A DNA stretch of 26,406 nt from an uncultured archaeon (GCA_964525635.1 CAZGJX010000055.1:1-26406), one strand, 5' to 3'; numbered from the stretch's first letter, positions 3,486 through 18,030 are shown. Program-made: numbers and translations. The notes: a model not told the origin generated them from the letters alone.

Positions 3486-3546
3486 GGGATTTCAGAAAAT
3501 TGTCGGCGTAATGCATTTTTATTTTTATTTTATATTAAATCATATA

Positions 3547-4302
3547 ATGGTGTTTAACTCAGGATTTGTGGTACATAAGAATAATGGTAATTATACTTCA
3601 ATTTCTACAGGAGATATTACATTAGATACTCTATTGAATGGGGGATATTCTACAAATCTAATTCATTTATTATATGGTGATGTAAGAAAAACAACAAACG
3701 TATTAATGACTACTTCTGTTATCGTTCAAGAAGCTTTTTTATATGGAGGATTAGGAGATGGGATTAGAGTTGCTTTTGTTGATGGAAACAATCGGTTTAA
3801 TCCTTATAATATAAGCAAATTTGCAATTTCAAAAAAAATGTCTCCTAGAAAAGTTTTAGAGAATATAATTATTGCTCGTGCATTTACTTGGGATCAAATG
3901 GTTGAAATTTTGGAAAATCAACTTACTAAACTTGAAGATGTAAAAGTTGTTTTGATTTCTGGCATTACTAATCTACTTCAAAGTTATGAAAAGCATACGT
4001 TTGAGGATTTATTGAGAATAGTGAGTGGGATTAAAAAGATCCTTTCAAAAACTAATCCATTAATTGTAATAACTGCACCACTTCACAAAAATTCATTTTT
4101 CAGACCAAAAGGAGGAAAAATTCTTTCACACTTTGGAAATGTTTTAGTGTTGATAAATGATGAAGAACGTTATGTGGAATATAAACTCATACAACATCCA
4201 TTTCTTCCAGAAAATCGTGTTCTAAAATGGAAACCTCGTAAACCTAAGAGAAATCTAGCAAATCTCTCCAAAAATACCTCTTTAGACAACTGGATAGTAT
4301 AG
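3547..4302 (+). CDS. PolB2-associated RadA/RecA-fold protein with degenerate Walker motifs and a C-terminal PIP-like motif
   Basis: RadA-like segments ISTGDITLDTLLNGG, AFVDGNNRFNP and LENIIIARAFT. Walker A is reduced to YGDVRKTT and Walker B reads VVLISG (no Asp). C-terminus is NTSLDNWIV. ATG 3547 is preferred over 3511 because the extra 12 codons are low-complexity AT-rich sequence. Confidence 0.85.
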   Translation: MVFNSGFVVHKNNGNYTSISTGDITLDTLLNGGYSTNLIHLLYGDVRKTTNVLMTTSVIVQEAFLYGGLGDGIRVAFVDGNNRFNPYNISKFAISKKMSPRKVLENIIIARAFTWDQMVEILENQLTKLEDVKVVLISGITNLLQSYEKHTFEDLLRIVSGIKKILSKTNPLIVITAPLHKNSFFRPKGGKILSHFGNVLVLINDEERYVEYKLIQHPFLPENRVLKWKPRKPKRNLANLSKNTSLDNWIV

Positions 4303-4306
4303 GATT

Positions 4307-6712
4307 TTATTGATTACTAAAACTCATTAAATCTTTTTGTATAGATTTTTGATTAAAAACCACTTTCGAGAACTCTTCAAGATCAGGAAATTCAAAAGGA
4401 AAGATATTTTTAAAGGATCTTTTTAATAGTTCGACATATTTTTTTTTATCATATTGATGTTTTTTTTCATCATACAAATCTGAAAGAATTACTTTTTTTT
4501 CTGGAAAATTAGGATCTGCTTCTGCATTAAGAATGATATACCTTACGTTTTTTCCTGCTGAAGCTACTATTCCTGATCGTTCCAATTGCTTTGCTGCAAC
4601 TGCCTGATATGAATTTACTTTATACTCAGAGGGTTTTCGCGAGATTTTTTGTTTTATTGTAAGCTCATCTTTTGATACTTTCCCTGAAAGAATTCTATTT
4701 ACATATTCAAAAAGCTTTTCTTTTGCTGTAGGAATTTTTTTCTTGAATTCTGTAACAGAAGTAACATCTTGAAAGAGATTTAGAAAGGCATATTGCGCAT
4801 CTTTAATTATCTTTGGTATATCTCTACGTCTTACTTCAATTCCCCGTACTTTAAGTTCACCGTTGTTTTTAATTCCCCAATAATGGCTGAGTGCTGGTAT
4901 ACTTGGTTCGGCTCGAGAAGGAAGAAATGTAATTATATTATATCTTCCTTCCCAATTCATAGGGATATGTGTATGTTTAGTTATTTCATTTGCAATTTTC
5001 ATTGTTACCTTTTCAAATTCTTTTGGAGTGCGATTCTTTTTATCTTTTAGCCAAATTGAATCAACAATGCCATGAATAATTTGACATCCGTATTTTTCTG
5101 CAATCTCCGCAGCACGAAGTAAAAATTCTCGTGCAAATGCACAGACGGTTTGATGAGCCTCAATCTTTCCAAATCGAGCATTTTTAAATCCTAAATATCC
5201 AAAACTTACAACAAGTACCCATTTTAGGGCAATGTCCGTGAATTTATACCTCATATCATTATGTGTTTTGTTGTATTCTTTATATTTAAGGCGTTTCTCT
5301 AATGGTAATTTTATTGATTTAGAGATTATTCCTTGCCTTTTTGTACATATATGAAAATTCAATCCGGGTACTTTTATTCCTGTGCCATCATCCTTACAAC
5401 ATTGACAGTTAATAGTTTCAGAAGATATGTTATAATTTGCCATTAACGAGGGATACATAGAAGAAAAATCAAGTTCAACTACTTGATCAAATACTCCAAT
5501 AATTGGCTCAAAAATATGCCCTCCTCGATCACTATAAAGTAATTCCATACAACTTCTAAAATTTTCAGGACTCTTTTTAAAAGGTGGAATAAGATGATTA
5601 AGCTTATAAGCATTATAAAATTGGATTGATTGTAATGCTCCTCCTATTGTAACTCGAGACAATCTTTGTATTGGAACACGTGAAATACGTGCAACTTCTA
5701 TAACACCAGGAATATTACCTTCGCTGAAGTGTAAACTTGTATAAGAGGTAGTATCTAAATGAAACCTTCCTGTAAAATATACTTGTGTTTTTGAGCGCCG
5801 AAAAATTATCCCATATGACATATAATGCTCAGAATTACCTGATAGATTGAAGATACAATTTTTAAGTGGTATTTTATCTCTTGAAAAATACACATCCTTT
5901 GATACTTGATTTACTGATGCTCGTGCTGCTAAATATGGAAAAACAAATTCATCCCCATTTTGAGTAAGAATAATATCAGGATTAAGTTTTTCTATTACAA
6001 GACTTACCTTCTTTAATGTTTCAGCTTCATCTCCTTCATCAATAAGAAATGTTCTTTTCTTATATCCATCTGCCCGTGGTACGTTATTTTTATCATTATC
6101 AACCAGACTTACCTCAATATATTCAAGGATATCGTTATAATAAGGTCTAATTCCTTTGTATCGTATTTTAAGATTGAGCCAAACAGCTTTTAAAGGGGGA
6201 AGATTGTAGTATAACTTTTCATTGTTATCCTTTAATTCGAATGATATCAGTTTTAATATATTTTCTTTTTTTTTTTTATTTTCCTCAATCTTAACCTTAA
6301 AACTACAAAAAGACATTGGAAATAAATCGTTAACATATAAAAACATTTGAGAAATTGGAAGATCTGTGTTGTACAGCGTAAATAAATCAATTTTATTTAT
6401 TTCTGCTATTGTTTTTTTAAATAATGAAGGCTTAACTACTGAAACTCCAAATATTTTTGTTTTAAAACTATCTTCAAGTTTCACATATTTTTCACATATT
6501 CTTACTTTTTTCACATGAGGATGATTCTCAATAATAAGCTTTAATCTTTCAAGATCATTCTCTCTACCTTTTTTTGGAACAGCGAAAAACTCTGGATGGA
6601 AATTTTGAAGAATTTTTATATTTTTACCTTTATATTTTACCCAAAGAATGACTCCTTCATCATAAGTTGAAATATCTAGAAACCATCCATCAAATTGATT
6701 TTGAGAATGCAA
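4307..6712 (-). CDS. polB2: Family B DNA polymerase, PolB2 (Dpo2) group
   Basis: Motif A LDFSSMYPS; motif B variant KWVLVVSFGYLG; motif C variant HGIVDS (for YGDTDS); RGIEVRRRD; degenerate ExoII NGDEFVFPYL; C-terminal QKDLMSF. The TTG start directly abuts the upstream stop. Confidence 0.92.
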   Translation of the reverse strand: MHSQNQFDGWFLDISTYDEGVILWVKYKGKNIKILQNFHPEFFAVPKKGRENDLERLKLIIENHPHVKKVRICEKYVKLEDSFKTKIFGVSVVKPSLFKKTIAEINKIDLFTLYNTDLPISQMFLYVNDLFPMSFCSFKVKIEENKKKKENILKLISFELKDNNEKLYYNLPPLKAVWLNLKIRYKGIRPYYNDILEYIEVSLVDNDKNNVPRADGYKKRTFLIDEGDEAETLKKVSLVIEKLNPDIILTQNGDEFVFPYLAARASVNQVSKDVYFSRDKIPLKNCIFNLSGNSEHYMSYGIIFRRSKTQVYFTGRFHLDTTSYTSLHFSEGNIPGVIEVARISRVPIQRLSRVTIGGALQSIQFYNAYKLNHLIPPFKKSPENFRSCMELLYSDRGGHIFEPIIGVFDQVVELDFSSMYPSLMANYNISSETINCQCCKDDGTGIKVPGLNFHICTKRQGIISKSIKLPLEKRLKYKEYNKTHNDMRYKFTDIALKWVLVVSFGYLGFKNARFGKIEAHQTVCAFAREFLLRAAEIAEKYGCQIIHGIVDSIWLKDKKNRTPKEFEKVTMKIANEITKHTHIPMNWEGRYNIITFLPSRAEPSIPALSHYWGIKNNGELKVRGIEVRRRDIPKIIKDAQYAFLNLFQDVTSVTEFKKKIPTAKEKLFEYVNRILSGKVSKDELTIKQKISRKPSEYKVNSYQAVAAKQLERSGIVASAGKNVRYIILNAEADPNFPEKKVILSDLYDEKKHQYDKKKYVELLKRSFKNIFPFEFPDLEEFSKVVFNQKSIQKDLMSFSNQ

Positions 6713-6985
6713 TTATTTACCTTTTTTAATTATTTCTTCCAATTCTTTTACTTTTTTTTCCAAATTTAATATTTTTTTTTCTTGTTCAAGAGCAAAAGAT
6801 ATGAAAATGACTTCTGAAAGCATTGGGCGGGCACTTGCACTGCCAGCATCTGCATGAATTCGAGCAAAATTCATTATATTATTAAAGATTAGCTGGTCTT
6901 CAGGGCGAAGGGCTCGTTTAAAATCTTTCCAACTCTCAATTTCATGTTCTAAAGCAGGTCTAAAAGAGGGTACAGTTCTTCCCAT
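6713..6985 (-). CDS. Small helical PolB2-associated protein (arCOG07300-type), 90 aa
   Basis: MGRTVPSFR...WKDFKRALRPEDQ...AR.HA pattern recalled for the protein encoded next to archaeal PolB2. Coiled-coil-like C-terminus. Its TAA abuts the polB2 TTG. ATG 6985 is preferred over GTG 6991. Confidence 0.85.
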   Translation of the reverse strand: MGRTVPSFRPALEHEIESWKDFKRALRPEDQLIFNNIMNFARIHADAGSASARPMLSEVIFISFALEQEKKILNLEKKVKELEEIIKKGK

Positions 6986-7209
6986 ATTCACATCTAGTGA
7001 TTTAATCTTTAGAACAATAAAAAAAAAAATACTTTGATAATTTTCTGATTTGAATAGAATATTTGATCTATTGGATTTTTAGGAGTACAATCTCTATATT
7101 TCTCTTTTTTAATATTCTTATAAGTTTTATTATTAATATAATAAACAATATATATCAATAAATTAACACACTCTACCATAATATAAAAGTAGTTTACAAT
7201 TCTTAATAT

Positions 7210-7374
7210 ATGTCTAAAGCTGAGATATCATATTATGATTGGAAATTGAAATTCAAAAAAGATGTTAAAGAAAATAATAGTTATCATAATAATAATGAAT
7301 CTATTAATTCATTAGGTATTCCAGATAAAGAATTTAAAGAATATTTAAAAAATTGGAAGAAAAATAATTTATAA
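7210..7374 (+). CDS. Small hypothetical protein, 54 aa (MSKAEISYYDWKLKFKKDVKENNSYHNNNESINSLGIPDKEFKEYLKNWKKNNL)
   Basis: Manual translation from ATG 7210 to TAA 7372-7374. Charged, protein-like composition. Fills the gap and ends 22 nt before the convergent kinase stop. Confidence 0.55.
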   Translation: MSKAEISYYDWKLKFKKDVKENNSYHNNNESINSLGIPDKEFKEYLKNWKKNNL

Positions 7375-9484: not shown

Positions 9485-12400
9485 TTAAATGACTTCAGAT
9501 AAAAATTGAAAATAAAATAAAGCAAGTGTAATAATCAACATAATAATGAAAAATATAGTTGAATAAAAACGCCATTTGATAGAGATTTCTTCTTTCTTCT
9601 CTTTATAATAGATATATGGGAGAAAAATAGCACCAAATATAGTAAAGGATAAAAATATAGCTATTAAATAAAATTTAAATTCAAAATAATATAAAATAAT
9701 TCCAAGAACTGAAATCCAAGCACTACTTAGATACATAATTCTATATTTTAAAAGTTTATCTGGTTCCATATCTGACACTTGTTTTGATATATTATAATAT
9801 ATAAGAGAGATTGTTATGCCAACGCTTATTATTACTGAATATAACCAATAAAGTTTTACATATATAAATAAAACAATAAAAATAGAAATTCCAAAAGAAA
9901 CTGAAAAGAAAGTCCAGATATAAATCCAATATCGTTTTAAAAAGTGGATAATCCCCTTAAAAAACATTAAAATCTTATTTATAATCAAAATAATAATCTT
10001 TTTTAAATTATCAATAAACTTGTTGAAAAAATTCTTTATTTGTTCCATAAGAAAAATAAATGGATATAATAATATGGAAAAAATAAGAAATGAGAGGCTA
10101 GAAATTAATGGAAAATAATTATAGTAAAAACTAATTTGGAAAATAATCGTACCAAATAATGTAAATATTAAAAGCCAGATAAGAAATGAGAATTTCTTAG
10201 ATTTTTCTGTAAAAACTTTAAAATATATTGCATATAAAAATAAGAGAATAACTAGAGAAATATTAATATTGAAATAGTTATTAAATAAAAAGAAGTTTGG
10301 ACTTAAAAAAGCTTCAGATAATACAAAGAAATCTAAACATAAAAGATTTATAAAAATGAATTGCATATACCGATTTAGTTTATATATTAATTTACTCTGA
10401 TGATCTTGTAATATATCAATAAAATATAGAAGAATTATGAAGATTAATAATGAAAGAATTATTAAATTCAAATCTAAAATAAGATCTTGACTAAAATAAA
10501 ATAATGGAAAACTAATTATATCAAAAGTTAAAAATGTATAAATATAAGATCTAATTCTATTTTTATTATTTTTAAAAACTTTCCAGATTGTTAAAAGATG
10601 GAATAGATATATAAGTTCAAGTCCTCCTAATAAGAACACTATTGGGATTCTAATTAATATTAATTGGAGATTATGAGTTGGGAATGAAATAAAAATCAAG
10701 AAATTTGAAGAAATCATAATAGAACTCCATGAGATGATTTTAATATATTTTGTGACTTCTTCCATGAATTTTAATATACTTTTATCTAATAGACATATCA
10801 GAAATATTATATTACTTAAAACAAATATTTGAATCGATATTTCTATGAAATTAATTAACTCTTGAAATAAGATTAATAAGAAGAAGTAAAAACAGACCCC
10901 AATTATAATCTTTCTCTGTTTATATTTAATATTAATTTTAGATAATTTATCTCTTGAGATATATTTATTTTGAGGATGTTCTGCAGTTCTAAAATTTAAA
11001 TATAAATAATTAGTTATGAATTGCATAATAATAAATAGAAGAGAATACAATTTTAGATGAACTAGTGAAAATTGGGAATAATCATTTAATGCAATGAAAC
11101 TTGAGAAAGATAAAATTAACATTAGAATAGTTAACTGTAAAAAACCATATTTCTTGCCAACTATTTGAAGTAAATATACATCAATCAATAATAAAATGAC
11201 ATATAAAATCAATGTTATTGAAAGACTAATGTATAAATCAAAAATACTGATTACGAATGAAAATATTAGGAAATTTAAATAAAAGTAAATTACATTACCT
11301 AAAAAGGAGAGAAATTTTTTGTAAAAAATGGGTAATTTCTGTTGTATTTTAAATATATTGATAAAGTATATTGAGAGAAACAATAATCCTACATTTAAAA
11401 ATATTATAAGATTAATTGATAATAAATCTAAATCTCCATAAATTAGAACTAAATTGATTAAATTTAGAGTAAGAGAAATTTGAAATATAAGAAAGACTAT
11501 AGATTTAATGAAATTTAGTATTTTTTCCTGATATATATTTAATATTATACTATAAAATAAAAGGATTGCTGAAAACCAGAAAATAAAAAGATTATAGAAG
11601 TTAATTTGATTTATATGCAATTCAGGTATCAGATTAATGGTAGTTTGAGATATAAAAGAAGACATCATTCCTATAATTAGGAAATATGTTAAATATGTTA
11701 AAACTGTTTGAAATTTGAATAATATATTTATTTTATTTTTCATTAATCGTTGGCTTAGCATTAAAGCGAATATATTTAGTCCTAAAGATATTAGGAGAAA
11801 AATAAAGATTTGAGTTAATATTGCAATAGAAGAAAAATCCAATAACAATAGAAAAATCAATATAGCTATTGAATTATTAAGTAATATTAATGATAATATA
11901 CTAATTTTTTTATTTAGCTCTCCTGTAAAATGTTTAAAAAAGTATATATTAAGGATAAGCTCTAGCGTTAATATACCATTGAAAATAATCATAATCAATA
12001 ATGTAAGATAAGGTAATGTAAAACTGGTACTAATAAAAACATTCCATATTAGACTCAAAATAGATGATGGAATAAGAATGTAAAATAATCCTCCAATGTT
12101 TTCTAAAATCCAATTTATTCCTTTTATATTTAAAATCTCTTTATTTTTCCTTAAATAATAAAATATAAATAAATTCAATATAGAATACACAAAAATGAAC
12201 CCAAATATTTGGTAGAATAAAGAATTAAAACAAAAAACTGAAATTAAGAGAGAAAAATAAAAATTATTAAGACTGAAACATAAAAGATTTATTATTTTTA
12301 TTTTTCTATTGTTTTCAAAAGGTTTTATAAATTCATCTCTGATATTAAATACAACTTGGAGAATGATAAGATAAGACATTAAATAGATAAAAATTGTAAA

Positions 12401-15400
12401 GATGTTGAAGAATTTAACGAAGTCATAAATCTCGAGAATTTCAAGAATTAAAAATGATAAAGGAATGGGATTTAAATATATTAATAGGTATTTTGAATGA
12501 TATAAAATTTTATGAATAAATAAAATTGTAATTGAAGAAGAAATTGCTAATAATAAGAATAGATAATATGGAATTACCAAATATAAAATAGTAAAAATTG
12601 AAAATGATAGACTTATCCCAAATAATAACCATAGTATTTCAATAGGTATTCTTCTAAAGATTAAATAAAAATAGTTAAAAAGAAATAGAAATCCAAAACA
12701 AAAAGTCATAGCTAATGAGATCGATAGAACCTCCATATTTGGTATTAAATTTAATGAAAAATGAATTAAAGATGAGGAATTAACAATAAAATTCAATGAA
12801 ATAAAAGTACGAATTAGGGGTTGATTAATCTTCTTTAGATATCTTGAAGTATATAATCCTCCAGAAATTATAATAGCTGATAAATTAAAAGATATCACTT
12901 GATTTAAAATGATTTCTGATAATATAAAATAAATTGTTAAAAAAAGTCCAATAAAAATCATAGAATATGAAATAATTAATATCAAAATATATGTTCTAAC
13001 GTTTGGAAAAATTGAATAGACAATCAAAAAAATACCACAAACAATGATATCAATCGAAATTATTAGTTCGATAGTGAAATTCATTGAAGCTAAGAAAAAT
13101 ATTAAAAAGCTTACATTTAATACAATTAATATTAACCAAATAAAAGATAAGATCCTCCATAATTTTAATCTCCAAAAGATTGGTGTTAATAAAAAGAATG
13201 AAGAAAGCCCAAAGAATAGATTTGAAAGTAGCATATTATCAATAAATAAGTTTTGACTTATCCAAAATGTTAATGCTAATGATTCACCCCATACTATAAG
13301 CAAAATTTCAGTAAAGTACTTTTTAATTTTTGAAAATAAAATAGGAAGATAAAATAAAGAACAGATTATAAATGTTATAATAATAGACCCATTTATATCA
13401 AATAAATTAAAGAAATCTAATGCTTGAGTGAATATATCTATACCTAAGACATTATTATAAATTATATAAAAATTAATAATTGGTACAAATAACAATATTC
13501 GCCATCCAACTCTCCAGATGGCCCATGATATCTTCCATTTATAAATTCCAACTGAAATGAAAAATAAAAAGATTATCGCATCAAGAATTATTATTATTAA
13601 TATAGGATCTCCAAAATAAAATCCAAAATAAGAGATCAGTAATGTGTAAATGAATCCTGGGATGAAAAGAGTTATAGTAGTTAAAGATATATAAAATATC
13701 AGTTTCCTTAATGATTTGGAAAGTTTATTAAATAAGAATATGACTCCAAAAGATGTGAATATTGATGTTAAAGCGAATGTTAAAATAATGTTATATAATT
13801 GATAACTTGAGTCAGTAAATAAAAAAGAATATGAAATCCAACTGGAAATATTAAATAATAAAAGGATAATACAAGGCTTAATGAACCATTTATACCTTTT
13901 ATCTTCCCTTAAATAATAATCAAAGGTAACTATAAATAGGAAAACTAAAATGGATATTGTTATATTATATATGAGTAGTATTCTTGTAAAATTAAATATA
14001 AAAATAAATAAAATGCTTGAAATTAAAGAATAAAATAGATACTTTTCAATTAGGTTTATTTTCTTGTAATTTATACCCACTGAAAAAATCAATACTAAAC
14101 TGAAATTCATTAAAAAAATAATTAAAATAATACAAATAGGATATCCCATCACTACTTCTAATAACGATGTTGCTTCAAAAAAATTAAGAATTTTGATAAA
14201 TCCAACGAAACTAAGAATAACATATATTAAAAATCTAATTATTAGATTCTCTTTCCTTTCTAATGATATTATGGTATATAAAATGAATAATACAAGAATG
14301 GAATAGTCAGCATTTAGAAACAAAATACTAAAACTAATCAATAAAGTCTTTATAACTAAAATATAAAATTTCTTAAGATACTCCTTTTGATTTTTTTCAT
14401 TATTATTGATATAATAACATAAATTGATTAATATTAAACTAAAGATAAATAGGATATTTGTCATTAAATCACTAATATAGATAAACCAGTATAATTCCGT
14501 AAAGATAATATTGGTTATAATTAAATATAATAGAGGTGAAATCTTTTTTGATAAAATATTAAAAATTTTTTTTTTTGTATATCCCTGATTAAATATAATA
14601 ATTAATGGATGGAATATATTCAAAAATAACATAAACAATAGACAAAAATTCAATATTTCTAACTCTACCACTGGAATAGGAACTATATTGCTAAGTAGAA
14701 ATATAGATGCTAAAATAAATGAAGATGAAATGATGATCCCACTGGATTGAATAGATTTAAACGAGTTTCCTATTTTTTGAACTTTTTGAAAAGACTCAGG
14801 TTTTTGAATTGAATTGTAATAATAACCAAGATTTCCTATCAATTTAATATTATAGGAATTAATCATGAAAAGAGATAAAATTGAACAATTGATTATTAAA
14901 AAATCCCTTAAATATGTATCTGACCATTCTATTAATACAAGGTTTTCATATAGGATATATCCAATTGAAAAGCTAAGTAAAAACCAACTAATAATTAGGA
15001 TTAATTTAATATATGATAGTATAATTGATTCCAATCTTATTTTTTCACTTGAAAATTCCGCAAGTTTAAGAAACAGGAATAATAAAATAAGAGACAGAAT
15101 GATAATATAAATAAAATTGACATAAATATCTATTGCTTGTAATTCTAACCATATAAAAGTAGGGATAGATATAAATAAAAAACATAATAGAAAAATATCA
15201 CACAGAATTAACTTTTGAATAAATTTCTTGTTAAAAATACCTTTTTTATAAGAAAGGATAAAAAGACCATATAAATAAAAAAGAGTACTAATTATTGGGA
15301 AAATTATTTTAATGAAATGCCCAGGAATTAAAATAAATAGATAATAAAAAATAGTCGTTCCTGCTAATATAATACCTATGACAATATCTAATTTCAAAAT

Positions 15401-17887
15401 GATTTTAGCAGTTTTTTCTAAATTATTTTTTTTTCCTAAAAGATAAAACATGAAAAGAATTGTTAATAAGAGATATAAACTCAAATTAACTATATGTATA
15501 ACATCTACATAAATGTATGATTTAGCTAATTCAAATGAAATTATAGAAGGAATAAATATACAAGAAATTGATAAAATGATATTATTGCCTACTAAAACCT
15601 TTTTAAAGATATTCCTTTTAACATTATTTTTTAAGAGATATATAATACATAAATTAAAAGAAATACTAAAAAGAATTAAAGGTAAAATAAAGATATAAGT
15701 AGTGTCTAAAGTAAATAAGAACGAATAATAAAATATAAGAGAAGAGAGATAAAATAAACTAATTGAATTAACAAAAATCGTATATTTCTTAATAATTGAT
15801 TGATAATACCAGTTTAGAATATTGATTATTATTGCTGAAGTTGCAATTGACAAAAATAATGATAAAAAAACGTTGAATAAGAATTGAAAATAGGAAATAA
15901 GAAAAATAATTATTGAAATTTCAATAGATATTAAAAATAAGTTTATTTTAGTAAGTTTATCATATTTTTTGACTTTTAATTTATCTAATTGTAGCCCAAA
16001 TTTTAATTGAAATTGAATGGAAATTGATAAAATCAATAGACTAAATATAAATATTAAGATTAACAAATCTATTTTGTATAAATTAATAGAATCTAACCAG
16101 ATATTTGAAATAAAGATAAAATATACATATATTAAAGGAAATAAAAGCCATATAGAGTAATAAATATGAATTAAGACGTTCGTAATAATCTTAAATTCAT
16201 AATTAATATAAATAAAAACTATATATATGAAAATAAAAATAATACCGGAAAGTAAAATAAATGAAATAAGATGTATCAAATCAAGAGTATTGAATATAAA
16301 TGTATTAATTAGTAATACAATCAGTAAATCTAGTAATAAAAAATTAAAAATAATTGTTAATTTGAATGTGCTTATATATTTTTGCTTAAAAAATTTTGAA
16401 TAAAGCCTATAAAATGAAATCAATAAAGAAAAGGAAAAAAATATACAGAAAATTAGAATTCTAGAAATTAGTAAAATATCAGAATCTAAAATTAACAAAA
16501 AATCTTCAGTAGTTATGAGAGGATAAACCGAATATGATATTGAGAAGAAAATAAATACAGAAAGAAAATTCTGCCAAAGAATTACTTTTTCTTCAGTAAA
16601 GAGATTAATTCTTTTAAATAATTCTAAAGCAAAATATATTAATATTGTAAAAAAAGCCATTTGAATAATTAAAGTAATTGTTTCCCAATATATTGGAAAA
16701 AAAATAAAAGAAATATATCCTATTGAGATAATGGTTAAAATAAAATAAAGAAACTCAATATTCTTCTTTTGTATATAGTTATAATTATGTTCTAAATAAA
16801 TTATAAAGTAAAAAATAGGTATTAAAATAAAATTAAGATAATTTAAATCAATTAGATAAAACAATAATATAAATATAATCAGTAAAATGAATGAAATGAT
16901 TCCATTATAGTTTTGATATTTTAATATCTTCTTATTATCTATATTTTCTCCATTTGGTGTTTTATTTAATATCAATGAGTCTAATTTCATTTCATAGGAC
17001 AAATAAGAGATAATCCTTGCCTTTAAGTATAAGAAAAAGATAGCTAAAATGATTGATACATAAGATACTATTTCTAAATAATTATTAAATCCCTTCAGTG
17101 AAATTAAATAAATATTTAAAGAAGGTAGAAGAATGATAATACTGAAAATATAACTCTCTAATGAGATAAAAGTTTTTTTATTAAACTTTAAGATTATTTG
17201 TTTTAAATTTAATTGATTATCTTCTATTTGAGTATATTCAGCAAATAATTTTCTTTCTTTTTTTGTATAAAATACAGTAATAATATAAAAAAAACAACTG
17301 AAAAATAATACTAATCCAATTGTAAGATAAATAACGTTAGCAGTAAAAATAAAAACAATGATATTTGAAAAGCAATTGATAATAAAGAGATATTTATAAG
17401 TGTCTTTGATTGATAATTGAGGATAAATATCCAAAAAAGTATCTTTCTCTGAACTATAAAATAAGATTGGTGTGTATTTTAAATAAAAAAACACAACAGG
17501 TATTGCAAAACAAATATAGATAAGAGGGATTAATTGAAATTTTAAATCTAATGGATTTAATAATGTAAAGAATATTGAACTAACGAAATAGACAATATAA
17601 ATTAAAAAGATTACAGAGATTTTTATTATTAGATTTTTTTTTTCATTACCAAAAAATGGATTTTTTCTATACTTATCATAAAGTTTAAAGAATACAAATT
17701 GAGAAGTAATGAAGGAAACAAATGAAAAGGATAATATATAATAAAAATCTTCAAGAAAATTTGAAAGTATAAAATACGTAACTACCAATGACAATGATGG
17801 TATAATTAAAAAATATACACAAAACCACCATATTTTCCATATTATTTCTGTAGCTTTCTCTATTTTCTTATTTGAATTTCGTTCCAT
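9485..17887 (-). CDS. Giant polytopic membrane protein of unknown function (~2800 aa)
   Basis: Uninterrupted 8.4-kb ORF in very AT-rich DNA. Continuous alternation of hydrophobic ~20-mers and short K/N-rich loops. ATG 17887 follows a purine-rich AGAAGGCGA; the alternative start is TTG 17908. Confidence 0.9.
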   Translation of the reverse strand: MERNSNKKIEKATEIIWKIWWFCVYFLIIPSLSLVVTYFILSNFLEDFYYILSFSFVSFITSQFVFFKLYDKYRKNPFFGNEKKNLIIKISVIFLIYIVYFVSSIFFTLLNPLDLKFQLIPLIYICFAIPVVFFYLKYTPILFYSSEKDTFLDIYPQLSIKDTYKYLFIINCFSNIIVFIFTANVIYLTIGLVLFFSCFFYIITVFYTKKERKLFAEYTQIEDNQLNLKQIILKFNKKTFISLESYIFSIIILLPSLNIYLISLKGFNNYLEIVSYVSIILAIFFLYLKARIISYLSYEMKLDSLILNKTPNGENIDNKKILKYQNYNGIISFILLIIFILLFYLIDLNYLNFILIPIFYFIIYLEHNYNYIQKKNIEFLYFILTIISIGYISFIFFPIYWETITLIIQMAFFTILIYFALELFKRINLFTEEKVILWQNFLSVFIFFSISYSVYPLITTEDFLLILDSDILLISRILIFCIFFSFSLLISFYRLYSKFFKQKYISTFKLTIIFNFLLLDLLIVLLINTFIFNTLDLIHLISFILLSGIIFIFIYIVFIYINYEFKIITNVLIHIYYSIWLLFPLIYVYFIFISNIWLDSINLYKIDLLILIFIFSLLILSISIQFQLKFGLQLDKLKVKKYDKLTKINLFLISIEISIIIFLISYFQFLFNVFLSLFLSIATSAIIINILNWYYQSIIKKYTIFVNSISLFYLSSLIFYYSFLFTLDTTYIFILPLILFSISFNLCIIYLLKNNVKRNIFKKVLVGNNIILSISCIFIPSIISFELAKSYIYVDVIHIVNLSLYLLLTILFMFYLLGKKNNLEKTAKIILKLDIVIGIILAGTTIFYYLFILIPGHFIKIIFPIISTLFYLYGLFILSYKKGIFNKKFIQKLILCDIFLLCFLFISIPTFIWLELQAIDIYVNFIYIIILSLILLFLFLKLAEFSSEKIRLESIILSYIKLILIISWFLLSFSIGYILYENLVLIEWSDTYLRDFLIINCSILSLFMINSYNIKLIGNLGYYYNSIQKPESFQKVQKIGNSFKSIQSSGIIISSSFILASIFLLSNIVPIPVVELEILNFCLLFMLFLNIFHPLIIIFNQGYTKKKIFNILSKKISPLLYLIITNIIFTELYWFIYISDLMTNILFIFSLILINLCYYINNNEKNQKEYLKKFYILVIKTLLISFSILFLNADYSILVLFILYTIISLERKENLIIRFLIYVILSFVGFIKILNFFEATSLLEVVMGYPICIILIIFLMNFSLVLIFSVGINYKKINLIEKYLFYSLISSILFIFIFNFTRILLIYNITISILVFLFIVTFDYYLREDKRYKWFIKPCIILLLFNISSWISYSFLFTDSSYQLYNIILTFALTSIFTSFGVIFLFNKLSKSLRKLIFYISLTTITLFIPGFIYTLLISYFGFYFGDPILIIIILDAIIFLFFISVGIYKWKISWAIWRVGWRILLFVPIINFYIIYNNVLGIDIFTQALDFFNLFDINGSIIITFIICSLFYLPILFSKIKKYFTEILLIVWGESLALTFWISQNLFIDNMLLSNLFFGLSSFFLLTPIFWRLKLWRILSFIWLILIVLNVSFLIFFLASMNFTIELIISIDIIVCGIFLIVYSIFPNVRTYILILIISYSMIFIGLFLTIYFILSEIILNQVISFNLSAIIISGGLYTSRYLKKINQPLIRTFISLNFIVNSSSLIHFSLNLIPNMEVLSISLAMTFCFGFLFLFNYFYLIFRRIPIEILWLLFGISLSFSIFTILYLVIPYYLFLLLAISSSITILFIHKILYHSKYLLIYLNPIPLSFLILEILEIYDFVKFFNIFTIFIYLMSYLIILQVVFNIRDEFIKPFENNRKIKIINLLCFSLNNFYFSLLISVFCFNSLFYQIFGFIFVYSILNLFIFYYLRKNKEILNIKGINWILENIGGLFYILIPSSILSLIWNVFISTSFTLPYLTLLIMIIFNGILTLELILNIYFFKHFTGELNKKISILSLILLNNSIAILIFLLLLDFSSIAILTQIFIFLLISLGLNIFALMLSQRLMKNKINILFKFQTVLTYLTYFLIIGMMSSFISQTTINLIPELHINQINFYNLFIFWFSAILLFYSIILNIYQEKILNFIKSIVFLIFQISLTLNLINLVLIYGDLDLLSINLIIFLNVGLLFLSIYFINIFKIQQKLPIFYKKFLSFLGNVIYFYLNFLIFSFVISIFDLYISLSITLILYVILLLIDVYLLQIVGKKYGFLQLTILMLILSFSSFIALNDYSQFSLVHLKLYSLLFIIMQFITNYLYLNFRTAEHPQNKYISRDKLSKINIKYKQRKIIIGVCFYFFLLILFQELINFIEISIQIFVLSNIIFLICLLDKSILKFMEEVTKYIKIISWSSIMISSNFLIFISFPTHNLQLILIRIPIVFLLGGLELIYLFHLLTIWKVFKNNKNRIRSYIYTFLTFDIISFPLFYFSQDLILDLNLIILSLLIFIILLYFIDILQDHQSKLIYKLNRYMQFIFINLLCLDFFVLSEAFLSPNFFLFNNYFNINISLVILLFLYAIYFKVFTEKSKKFSFLIWLLIFTLFGTIIFQISFYYNYFPLISSLSFLIFSILLYPFIFLMEQIKNFFNKFIDNLKKIIILIINKILMFFKGIIHFLKRYWIYIWTFFSVSFGISIFIVLFIYVKLYWLYSVIISVGITISLIYYNISKQVSDMEPDKLLKYRIMYLSSAWISVLGIILYYFEFKFYLIAIFLSFTIFGAIFLPYIYYKEKKEEISIKWRFYSTIFFIIMLIITLALFYFQFLSEVI

Positions 17888-18030
17888 TGAATCGCCTTCT
17901 ACAATCAATAAATTGATCTATTATTCATATGTAAAATCACTTTTTTAAATCTATCTAATTTTAAAGTAATATAAATTATATTGAATTATAAATTCTTGAA
18001 ACTGTTATTTAATGATTTCTATAAACCTTA
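17656..18030. repeat. Copy 1 of a ~375-bp diverged duplication (upstream region plus first ~77 codons of the giant gene)
   Basis: Aligns with 18189-18563 at an offset of ~533 nt, e.g. gaattataaattcttga and ttatttaatgatttctataaa occur in both. Confidence 0.9.

Follow-up and report, generated by a model that had tools for sequence, protein, structure and literature searches.

The linkage of the family-B DNA polymerase PolB2 with arCOG07300 proteins and an inactive RadA, as well as the prediction that these proteins form a damage-response complex, goes back to Makarova et al. 2014 (PMC4104785), and the preliminary description of the DNA studied here called the association documented. Timinskas, Timinskas & Venclovas 2025 (PMC11791011) presented AlphaFold models of heteropentamers for 40 species, PolB2:iRadA:PPB2x3 (1:1:3), in which PolB2 grips the inactive RadA (iRadA) by a mimic of the RadA oligomerisation motif and clamp-binding motifs occur in iRadA or PolB2; PPB2, the arCOG07300 protein, is defined by an MGRT arm with Arg3 and Arg9. 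The same work compares this mutasome with Pol V and Pol zeta; operons of Lokiarchaeota and Heimdallarchaeota are listed in its supplementary tables, as is a model of PCNA:iRadA from Lokiarchaeota. Experimental support comes from the Sulfolobales only. Dpo2 of Sulfolobus islandicus is the sole member with genetic and biochemical data: it is damage-induced, needed for mutagenesis, and its induction depends on Orc1-2 (PMC6061795). It is the only damage-induced polymerase of S. islandicus (PMC7390963), and it acts as a translesion extender (PMC8764526). Searching the literature for experimental papers on the holoenzyme after PMC11791011, we found none.

Here we describe the locus at positions 3547–6985 of a stretch of 26 406 nt from an uncultured archaeon (GCA_964525635.1 CAZGJX010000055.1:1-26406; 'the window'), which is contig C55 of a genome assembly of 4.45 Mb in 245 contigs, with 27% GC and an estimated completeness of 100%. 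This locus is very probably the Lokiarchaeal (Promethearchaeota) version of the PolB2 mutasome. The functional reading proposed in the preliminary description is right in substance but already published, and the local novelty is that two of the genes are flipped in this genus; likewise, the statement that such a complex was uncharacterised in Asgard archaea holds for experiments alone, as in silico models and tables with Loki- and Heimdallarchaeota had been published (PMC11791011). Three open reading frames (ORFs) occupy the locus (3511/3547-4302 on the plus strand, 4307-6712 and 6713-6991/6985 on the minus strand), which we assign as follows:

3547-4302, plus strand: iRadA, an ATPase-dead RadA paralog (251 aa plus stop; Pfam Rad51, 3.8e-17)
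4307-6712, minus strand: PolB2, a proofreading-dead family-B polymerase (801 aa, TTG start; Pfam, profile alignment and Foldseek)
6713-6985, minus strand: PPB2 (arCOG07300), with an N-terminal MGRT arm carrying R3 and R9 (90 aa, ATG at 6985; ortholog alignment)

The locus shares with the published mutasome the change of motif C from DxD to IxD, the dead exonuclease, the MGRT arm with R3 and R9, an iRadA that lacks the N-terminal domain and the Walker residues, and C-termini of the clamp-binding type. It differs from it in orientation, the genes being mostly co-oriented in PMC11791011 whereas PPB2-PolB2 is inverted here; in the PCNA-interacting protein (PIP)-like tails, which are conserved on both PolB2 and iRadA here, a combination that is infrequent there; in a remnant of a polymerisation motif in iRadA, undiscussed there; and in the arrangement as two units with separate promoters and a shared box. 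The Dpo2 operon of S. islandicus has the same PolB2 type, a motif C of the IID/IVD kind (IID at residues 401-403, IVD at 549-551 here) and PPB2 and iRadA as neighbours. Its exonuclease domain, however, is more decayed, the Sulfolobus promoter element ANTTTC stands in another arrangement, and Sulfolobus possesses the Y-family polymerase Dpo4, while no Y-family polymerase was found in this genome.

PolB2 keeps catalytic residues of the polymerase and has lost the exonuclease site

The 801-aa protein matches the Pfam families DNA_pol_B (1.1e-26) and DNA_pol_B_exo1 (6.2e-10) and no other Pfam domains; its best NCBIfam model scores 8.2e-96, yet under the cut-off of that model. Searches against PDB sequences gave matches down to 2.8e-39 (Pyrococcus PolB structures are among the alignments), and its AlphaFold2 (AF2) model matches the archaeal family-B polymerases KOD and 9N with a Foldseek E of ~3e-32. 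All regions of the family-B fold are present, i.e. the N-terminal, exonuclease-like, palm, fingers and thumb regions. It is the single PolB2-type gene in the genome and shows ~29% identity to the genome's other PolB. One Loki PolB2 of PMC11791011 (HGIVDSMWL) shares 38 of the 61 residues around motif C with the window protein, the same HGIVDS included. The relatives that we fetched (65-79% identity) are almost all metagenome-assembled genomes of Promethearchaeota/Promethearchaeia, a phylum of the Asgard group, which bears out the Asgard attribution made earlier from the sequence.

The motifs on which the assignment rests are:

5447-5473, minus strand: motif A LDFSSMYPS with the catalytic D415 (alignment to Pyrococcus PolB; D415 invariant in 34 orthologs)
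5057-5074, minus strand: motif C HGIVDS (residues 547-552), DTD changed to IVD (H547-S552 invariant)
6167-6181, minus strand: WLNLK as the remnant of Exo I, with N-x-K in place of D-x-E (97.3% probability in hhalign with 30 Asgard PolBs)
5942-5959, minus strand: Exo II remnant NGDEFV, catalytic Asp changed to Val257 (aligned under NGDSFD/NGDNFD)
4319-4339, minus strand: C-terminal PIP-like motif Q-K-D-L-M-S-F (Q792 invariant)

Aligned to YIDTDG of Pyrococcus furiosus (Pfu), HGIVDS has Ile in place of the first Asp and retains the second (D551). Together with the retained motif A Asp this is the pattern of the PolB2 group, in which the first motif C Asp is replaced and the other two are kept. 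Motif B reads KWVLVVSFGY against KLLANSFYG, so that the Lys is kept, with Val at the position of Asn and Phe at that of Tyr. The Asp of motif A, the second Asp of motif C, the Lys of motif B and the Tyr of the KxY region are invariant across 34 orthologs.

For Exo I and Exo II we compared a clade profile with the exonuclease regions of 30 Asgard PolBs that retain DIE and NGDxFD; the end of the global hhalign alignment, which is forced, was disregarded. W-L-N180-L-K182 comes to lie under L-D-I-E-V at Exo I, where most relatives have D-I-K. The interval from Exo II to the LPME-type anchor is ~35 residues shorter than in Pfu, the exact point of the deletion being a matter of alignment, and it contains no conserved YxxxD: the sole Y-x-x-x-D (Y275..D279) has a non-conserved Asp. 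The Exo III segment thus appears to be missing. The AF2 monomer could not be used to locate it, because residues 289-402 have a predicted local distance difference test (pLDDT) value below 50 (mean of the model, 68.6) though they are highly conserved; such low values are consistent with folding on partners, or may reflect a shallow alignment. In all, the active site of the 3'-5' exonuclease is lost. Two claims of the preliminary description, that the Asp of motif A and the second Asp of motif C are retained in PolB2 and that acidic residues of its exonuclease are lost, agree with the ortholog comparison, with D415 and D551 invariant, N-L-K for D-I-E in Exo I and Val for Asp in Exo II.

At the C-terminus, the last 20 residues of every PolB2 ortholog examined (38/38) contain the pattern Qxx[LIMV]xx[FYW]. 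A Cys-rich C-terminal domain was not detected in PolB2 by the Pfam search.

PPB2 and its coupling to the polymerase

PPB2 has no match in Pfam or NCBIfam, and its identity was read from orthologs. The protein begins with MGRTVPSFRP, and within 25 orthologs the segment MGRTVPSFRPALE is invariant or nearly so, with M1, G2, R3, T4, F8 and R9 invariant throughout. A protein of ~90 aa beside polB2 with the MGRT arm and with Arg3 and Arg9 is what defines PPB2, and the 'small helical subunit' of the preliminary description can be given this name; its size and identity come from the sequence, while its helical nature is taken from the literature.

On the minus strand the junction reads AAA TAA TTG CAT, i.e. 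the TAA of PPB2 (6715-6713) directly abuts the TTG of PolB2 (6712-6710). The TAA-TTG coupling of the polymerase to a 90-aa protein had been proposed before and is confirmed by this reading at 6715-6710. Non-ATG starts are the rule for the polymerase: among 38 full-length orthologs we counted 22 TTG, 13 GTG and 3 ATG (non-ATG 35/38), and the start usually lies 1-3 nt past the PPB2 stop.

iRadA, an inactivated RadA with conserved ends

The features of the third protein, which is encoded on the plus strand, are:

3547-3567, plus strand: N-terminal M-V-F-N-S-G-F, a putative remnant of a RadA-type polymerisation motif (gapless alignment to G-F-[EK]-S-A)
3676-3696, plus strand: degenerate Walker A GDVRKTT (GEFGSGKT in Pfu RadA, GEYRTGKT in the genome's own RadA)
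3946-3963, plus strand: degenerate Walker B VVLISG (LIVVDS in the genome's own RadA); Asp changed to Ser138, invariant in 19 family members
4273-4296, plus strand: C-terminal PIP-like motif N-T-S-L-D-N-W-I (tail disordered in the AF2 model)

The iRadA profile matches Pfu RadA (1pzn) with 6.6e-17, aligned from Pfu RadA residue 103 onward, and its positions 1-146 align to residues 84-230 of human RAD51. Compared with Pfu RadA and the genome's own RadAs, the protein lacks the N-terminal helix-hairpin-helix domain and the loop after Walker B. Walker A shows a one-residue deletion and no GK[TS], with Thr aligned at the Walker A Lys. The protein is thus a RadA/Rad51 core minus the N-terminal helical domain in which the Walker A and B residues are replaced, and the broken Walker motifs that had been reported for this RecA-fold neighbour are real. 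The AF2 model is mostly confident over the RecA-like residues 17-228 and disordered at either terminus. The N-termini of orthologs, M-x-F-x-S-G, back the start at 3547; a longer ORF from the ATG at 3511 (3511-3546, plus strand) overlaps promoter elements and is probably untranslated.

The N-terminal remnant has the same spacing from the core as the motif in the genome's two RadA proteins, with F3 and S5 at least 90% conserved and G6 invariant. Its sequence suggests a plug by which iRadA might dock on RadA or on further iRadAs. In more distant iRadAs of the order, Y-R-[ST]-[GS] stands at a similar position (judged by eye, unaligned).

At the other end iRadA has a 25-residue extension with a basic patch, which ends in N-T-S-L-D-N-W-I-V. 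The pattern [QNS]xx[LIMV]xx[FYW][FYWLIM] lies within the last 14 residues of 20/20 orthologs (N/S-x-x-L/I-D-x-W-F type), and the genome contains one PCNA gene. As a side observation, the iRadA frames at four loci from other families of the order (L097, L100, L101, L102) have 345-383 aa, compared with ~250 here, and end in PIP-like motifs of the type L-D-x-[FY]-[LF]. At L097, iRadA is followed directly downstream by a PPB2 match in the same orientation; this may represent the fusion of iRadA with PPB2 known from the literature.

Gene order and inversion of PPB2-PolB2

PPB2 and PolB2 are adjacent in every relative whose locus spans the PPB2 position (43 of the 47 fetched, which are from other genera). 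In 24 of these, iRadA lies at most 4 kb from PPB2-PolB2, there always upstream and on the same strand. A PPB2 profile matches 40 of the 101 genomes sampled from the phylum. The trio is more than a chance juxtaposition.

Proteasome-alpha(-), Ras(-), iRadA(+), PPB2(+), PolB2(+), small ORF(+), HisK(-) is the order in the relatives, and the window departs from it solely in PolB2(-) and PPB2(-). iRadA and PolB2 consequently face each other tail to tail on opposite strands with stops 4 nt apart, so that iRadA stands outside the PPB2-PolB2 operon as a separate transcription unit. The same flipped layout is present in 3 other genomes of the genus (4 in total). An assembly artefact is ruled out by these three genomes and the inversion is real. 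Among 8 fetched loci of other genera of the family, 5 have iRadA-PPB2-PolB2 on one strand and none is flipped. PPB2-PolB2 is thus inverted in place, at the level of the genus. Around the flipped segment (~4303-7200) a search for inverted repeats returned only AT-rich pairs of low identity, none of them at the breakpoints. The preliminary description places the RecA-fold protein next to the polymerase and does not mention its opposite strand.

The genes flanking the trio encode a proteasome alpha subunit, a metallophosphatase, a Ras-family GTPase and a PAS-HisKA kinase. A 54-aa ORF at 7210-7374 (plus strand) of the window has no Pfam match, is conserved near PolB2 in >30 relatives, often in 2 tandem copies, and has been divergent to PPB2 since the inversion. 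The window as a whole is AT-rich (GC 18-32% per 1-kb window) and further contains, at 9485-17908 (minus strand), a giant ORF of 2807 aa within a stretch of 18-23% GC.

A promoter box shared by both units

Comparison of the upstream regions revealed a common arrangement in front of both transcription units:

3492-3510, plus strand: conserved promoter box TCAGAAAATTGTCGGCGTA upstream of iRadA (position weight matrix (PWM) score 41.0 bits, best site of the genome)
3516-3536, plus strand: T/A-rich TATA-like tract, candidate element of the iRadA promoter (TTTTATTTT-type, fixed spacing after the box in all relatives)
7030-7048, minus strand: conserved promoter box TCAGAAAATTATCAAAGTA upstream of PPB2 (34.9 bits, second-best site of the genome)
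7016-7029, minus strand: T-rich TATA-like tract, candidate element of the PPB2-PolB2 promoter (upstream-region comparison)

In an alignment of 51 promoters both units have the box T[CT]AGAAAATT-N6-GTA, followed by the T-rich tract; the tracts would act as promoter elements, judging by their composition and position. Its distance to the iRadA ATG is fixed at 55-56 nt, in the window as in 18 relatives that we fetched, with the same place in 3 other genomes of the genus; a box precedes the PPB2 ATG by 63-104 nt in 31 relatives. When the 4.45-Mb genome was scanned with the PWM, the two mutasome sites alone stood clearly over the control (41.0 and 34.9 bits versus a maximum of 20.1 bits). The box occurs in most genera searched within the family, whereas the PWM found none in the other families of the order, or at the iRadA paralogs, PCNA and the three Orc1/Cdc6 loci of the genome. 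Separate boxes and variable spacing are found in the wider family as well, i.e. the inversion broke no operon, and it was tolerated because the flipped unit carried its own promoter box along.

We also looked for a wider regulon. A loose regular expression gave 10 matches in the genome and 17 in the reversed-sequence control, hence no enrichment, and two marginal PWM sites (23.4 and 22.7 bits), which precede a CTP-synthase-like gene and a small ORF, are unconvincing. This CTP-synthase-like gene, C17:44553-46300 (plus strand), appears to be split into two frames of 103 and 474 aa, which may be due to a frameshift or a sequencing error. A 56-aa ORF at 7009-7179 (minus strand) overlaps the conserved promoter elements and is probably untranslated. 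The box holds GAAAAT, whose complement, ATTTTC, agrees with the ANTTTC element of Sulfolobus; as the hexamer alone fits, lies on the opposite strand and has different flanks, we do not claim the box to be the Orc1-2 element of Sulfolobus.

Prediction of the complex

We predicted a complex of PolB2 residues 1-410, three PPB2 and iRadA, the last being the scored partner, using clade alignments and taking the median of 3 runs. The score was 0.47, compared with 0.00 for the best of 3 controls, a result graded as weak support; the runs share at least 60% of contacts and the partner has a pLDDT of 76. Of the 80 solved complexes used for calibration 58 attained the mark, compared with 2 of 110 mismatched pairs. 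Passing scores of at most 0.60 comprised 7 of the 80 solved complexes and both passing mismatches, and a pass in this range is more often wrong than right unless the complex was likely beforehand; our job was unlike the calibration in having five chains and alignments of our own. As a comparable complex has yet to be solved, the pass is not the memory of a structure. Given the conserved linkage and the published models, the prediction would count as mild corroboration at most. A three-subunit damage-tolerance complex, as envisaged in the preliminary description, matches the published model in its components, the predicted stoichiometry being a 1:1:3 heteropentamer and not single subunits.

Further iRadA copies and other polymerases in the genome

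Three further iRadA-type copies are present elsewhere in the genome, at C21:17369-18121 (plus strand), C24:37620-38213 (plus strand) and C25:1799-2293 (minus strand) (L104-L106). They have ~50% identity to the window protein and ~76-81% DNA identity among themselves. One is intact (250 aa, with a PIP-like tail NERIDKWL), another is truncated and the third is interrupted by in-frame stops. The promoter box is absent from all three, as is any PolB2 or PPB2 neighbour, and the homology among the iRadA copies ends ~80 nt upstream of the gene. A second iRadA copy was found in 0 of 20 related genomes searched, so that, of 21 genomes, this is the single one with additional copies. We rejected the idea that the copies are viral or mobile in origin, no relative having been found in viral contigs.

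No Y-family polymerase (IMS, PF00817) was found in the assembly, with its estimated completeness of 100%, while the same search was positive in 10 of 14 control genomes. The PolB2 complex could hence be the organism's only specialised lesion-tolerance polymerase. The genome's other family-B polymerase, at C122:6266-10255 (plus strand; L054), is a 1330-aa open frame with DIE and NGDNFD intact; directly after the YG of motif C it has an insertion of ~380 aa, with size and position as for an intein.

Discussion

The proposed working of the locus follows the published system. PolB2 is an exonuclease-dead polymerase, presumably of low fidelity, which by analogy with Sulfolobus Dpo2 would extend primer ends past lesions and mismatches and thereby give rise to damage-induced mutations. 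iRadA is a nucleotide-blind RadA core, which PolB2 is predicted to grip via its mimic of the RadA polymerisation motif, and PPB2 is predicted to form a trimer, with a single MGRT arm reaching into the PolB2-iRadA cleft beside the DNA. The PIP-like tails of PolB2 and iRadA could tether the complex to the homotrimeric PCNA. Translational coupling through the weak TTG start would fit an excess of PPB2 over PolB2. With the same box in front of both transcription units, iRadA and PPB2-PolB2 may be co-regulated, the signal presumably being DNA damage, and the PPB2-PolB2 unit has been inverted in this genus together with its promoter and now converges on iRadA.

The likeness to better-known mutagenic polymerases is one of logic. 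Pol V (UmuD'2C-RecA) and ImuA-ImuB-DnaE2 likewise combine an error-prone polymerase with a RecA-fold partner bound by a filament motif, a small subunit and clamp binding, but their polymerases belong to families Y and C, in contrast to B here, the RecA of Pol V is an active recombinase, and UmuD', ImuA and ImuB are unrelated to PPB2. With a family-B polymerase and no IMS domain found genome-wide, the locus falls outside the ImuA-ImuB-DnaE2 type. Pol zeta (Rev3-Rev7x2-Pol31-Pol32) is the same in being of family B, with an inactive exonuclease, and in its extender role, its multisubunit make-up and its use of PCNA; the neighbours here are PPB2 and iRadA, with no HORMA (Rev7) or Pol31/Pol32-type subunits among them, and the locus falls outside the Pol zeta type as well. 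The comparison with ImuABC and Pol zeta drawn in the preliminary description is in line with the published one, although ImuA-ImuB-DnaE2 remains an analogy only, because it involves a different polymerase family.

Several points weigh against the assignment of a functional mutasome. The activity of an Asgard PolB2 is extrapolated from the shorter and distant Sulfolobales enzymes. Motif B, in which Asn is lost and Tyr is changed to Phe, could make its catalysis weaker than that of Dpo2. The PolB2 monomer modelled with AF2 is of moderate quality, with its conserved residues 289-402 below a pLDDT of 50, and the complex prediction gives weak support and comes without an interface list that would place the binding site on PolB2. 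Transcripts of iRadA and PolB2, converging with stops 4 nt apart, could interfere with each other. As to control by damage, a GAAAAT hexamer is common at 27% GC, and its orientation and flanks differ from ANTTTC.

Among the alternatives, the one that survives best, though we consider it unlikely, is synthesis coupled to recombination: the iRadA plug would dock on the open end of a RadA filament or on another iRadA and bring PolB2 to D-loops or filament ends, with a parallel in Pol V, which uses RecA from the filament tip. The gapless alignment of M-x-F-x-S-G to G-F-x-S-A of the organism's own RadAs, its conservation in the family and the similar motif in distant iRadAs of the order all speak for such docking, as does the disorder of the N-terminal segment in the AF2 model, which is usual for docking motifs. 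The published model, moreover, fills the iRadA socket with PolB2 and leaves the plug free (PMC11791011). In the same work, however, PolB2 did not model with RadA (PMC11791011), and the motif is possibly a vestige or packed inside the mutasome. Docking of this kind would also be compatible with a translesion role and not exclusive of it.

That the polymerase is catalytically dead, and the complex structural or regulatory, with a part for instance in origin-independent initiation or where forks have stalled, the view first taken of 'inactivated' PolB2, strikes us as quite improbable. This reading was raised by Makarova et al. 2014 (PMC4104785), and the loss of the first motif C Asp, the degraded motif B and the disappearance of all Exo motifs agree with it. 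But S. islandicus Dpo2, with the same type of substitution (IID), is an active translesion extender needed for mutagenesis (PMC8764526 and PMC11791011), and the invariance in 34 orthologs of the Asp of motif A, the second Asp of motif C, the Lys of motif B and the Tyr in the KxY region fits retained catalysis. Least probable of all, and hardly tenable, is that in this genus iRadA has functioned apart from PPB2-PolB2 since the inversion, or is decaying, with adjacency as a relic: it lies on the opposite strand, tail to tail with PolB2, and the three further copies, two of them broken, suggest relaxed constraint on the family, but the window copy is intact with 72-79% identity to orthologs of the genus, retains the PIP-like tail and the family promoter box at the same spacing (the box is missing at the paralogs), and belongs to a family in which boxes were already separate and spacing variable.

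We therefore keep to the PolB2 mutasome as the reading of the locus. An extended version of it, which we put forward with considerable doubt, would make the mutasome a three-way adaptor: two PIP-like tails, one on PolB2 and one on iRadA, holding two subunits of one PCNA ring, with the iRadA plug in the end of a RadA filament or in extra iRadAs, would couple error-prone extension to recombination intermediates under a dedicated two-promoter box, possibly as the organism's sole specialised polymerase for lesion tolerance.

Eukaryotes have no closer known relatives than the Asgard archaea, whose damage tolerance bears on the origin of Pol zeta-like, PCNA-bound, multisubunit translesion polymerases of family B. 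This picture is left unchanged by the locus, since the system is published and the locus is an ordinary member of it. The natural inversion shows that the iRadA and PPB2-PolB2 units are independent of each other. The compact regulon of two promoters with a sharply defined box offers a handle for finding the damage regulator of Asgard archaea, and a clade with conserved clamp-type tails and a RadA-type docking motif lends itself to specific mutants in a heterologous system or in a cultured Lokiarchaeon.

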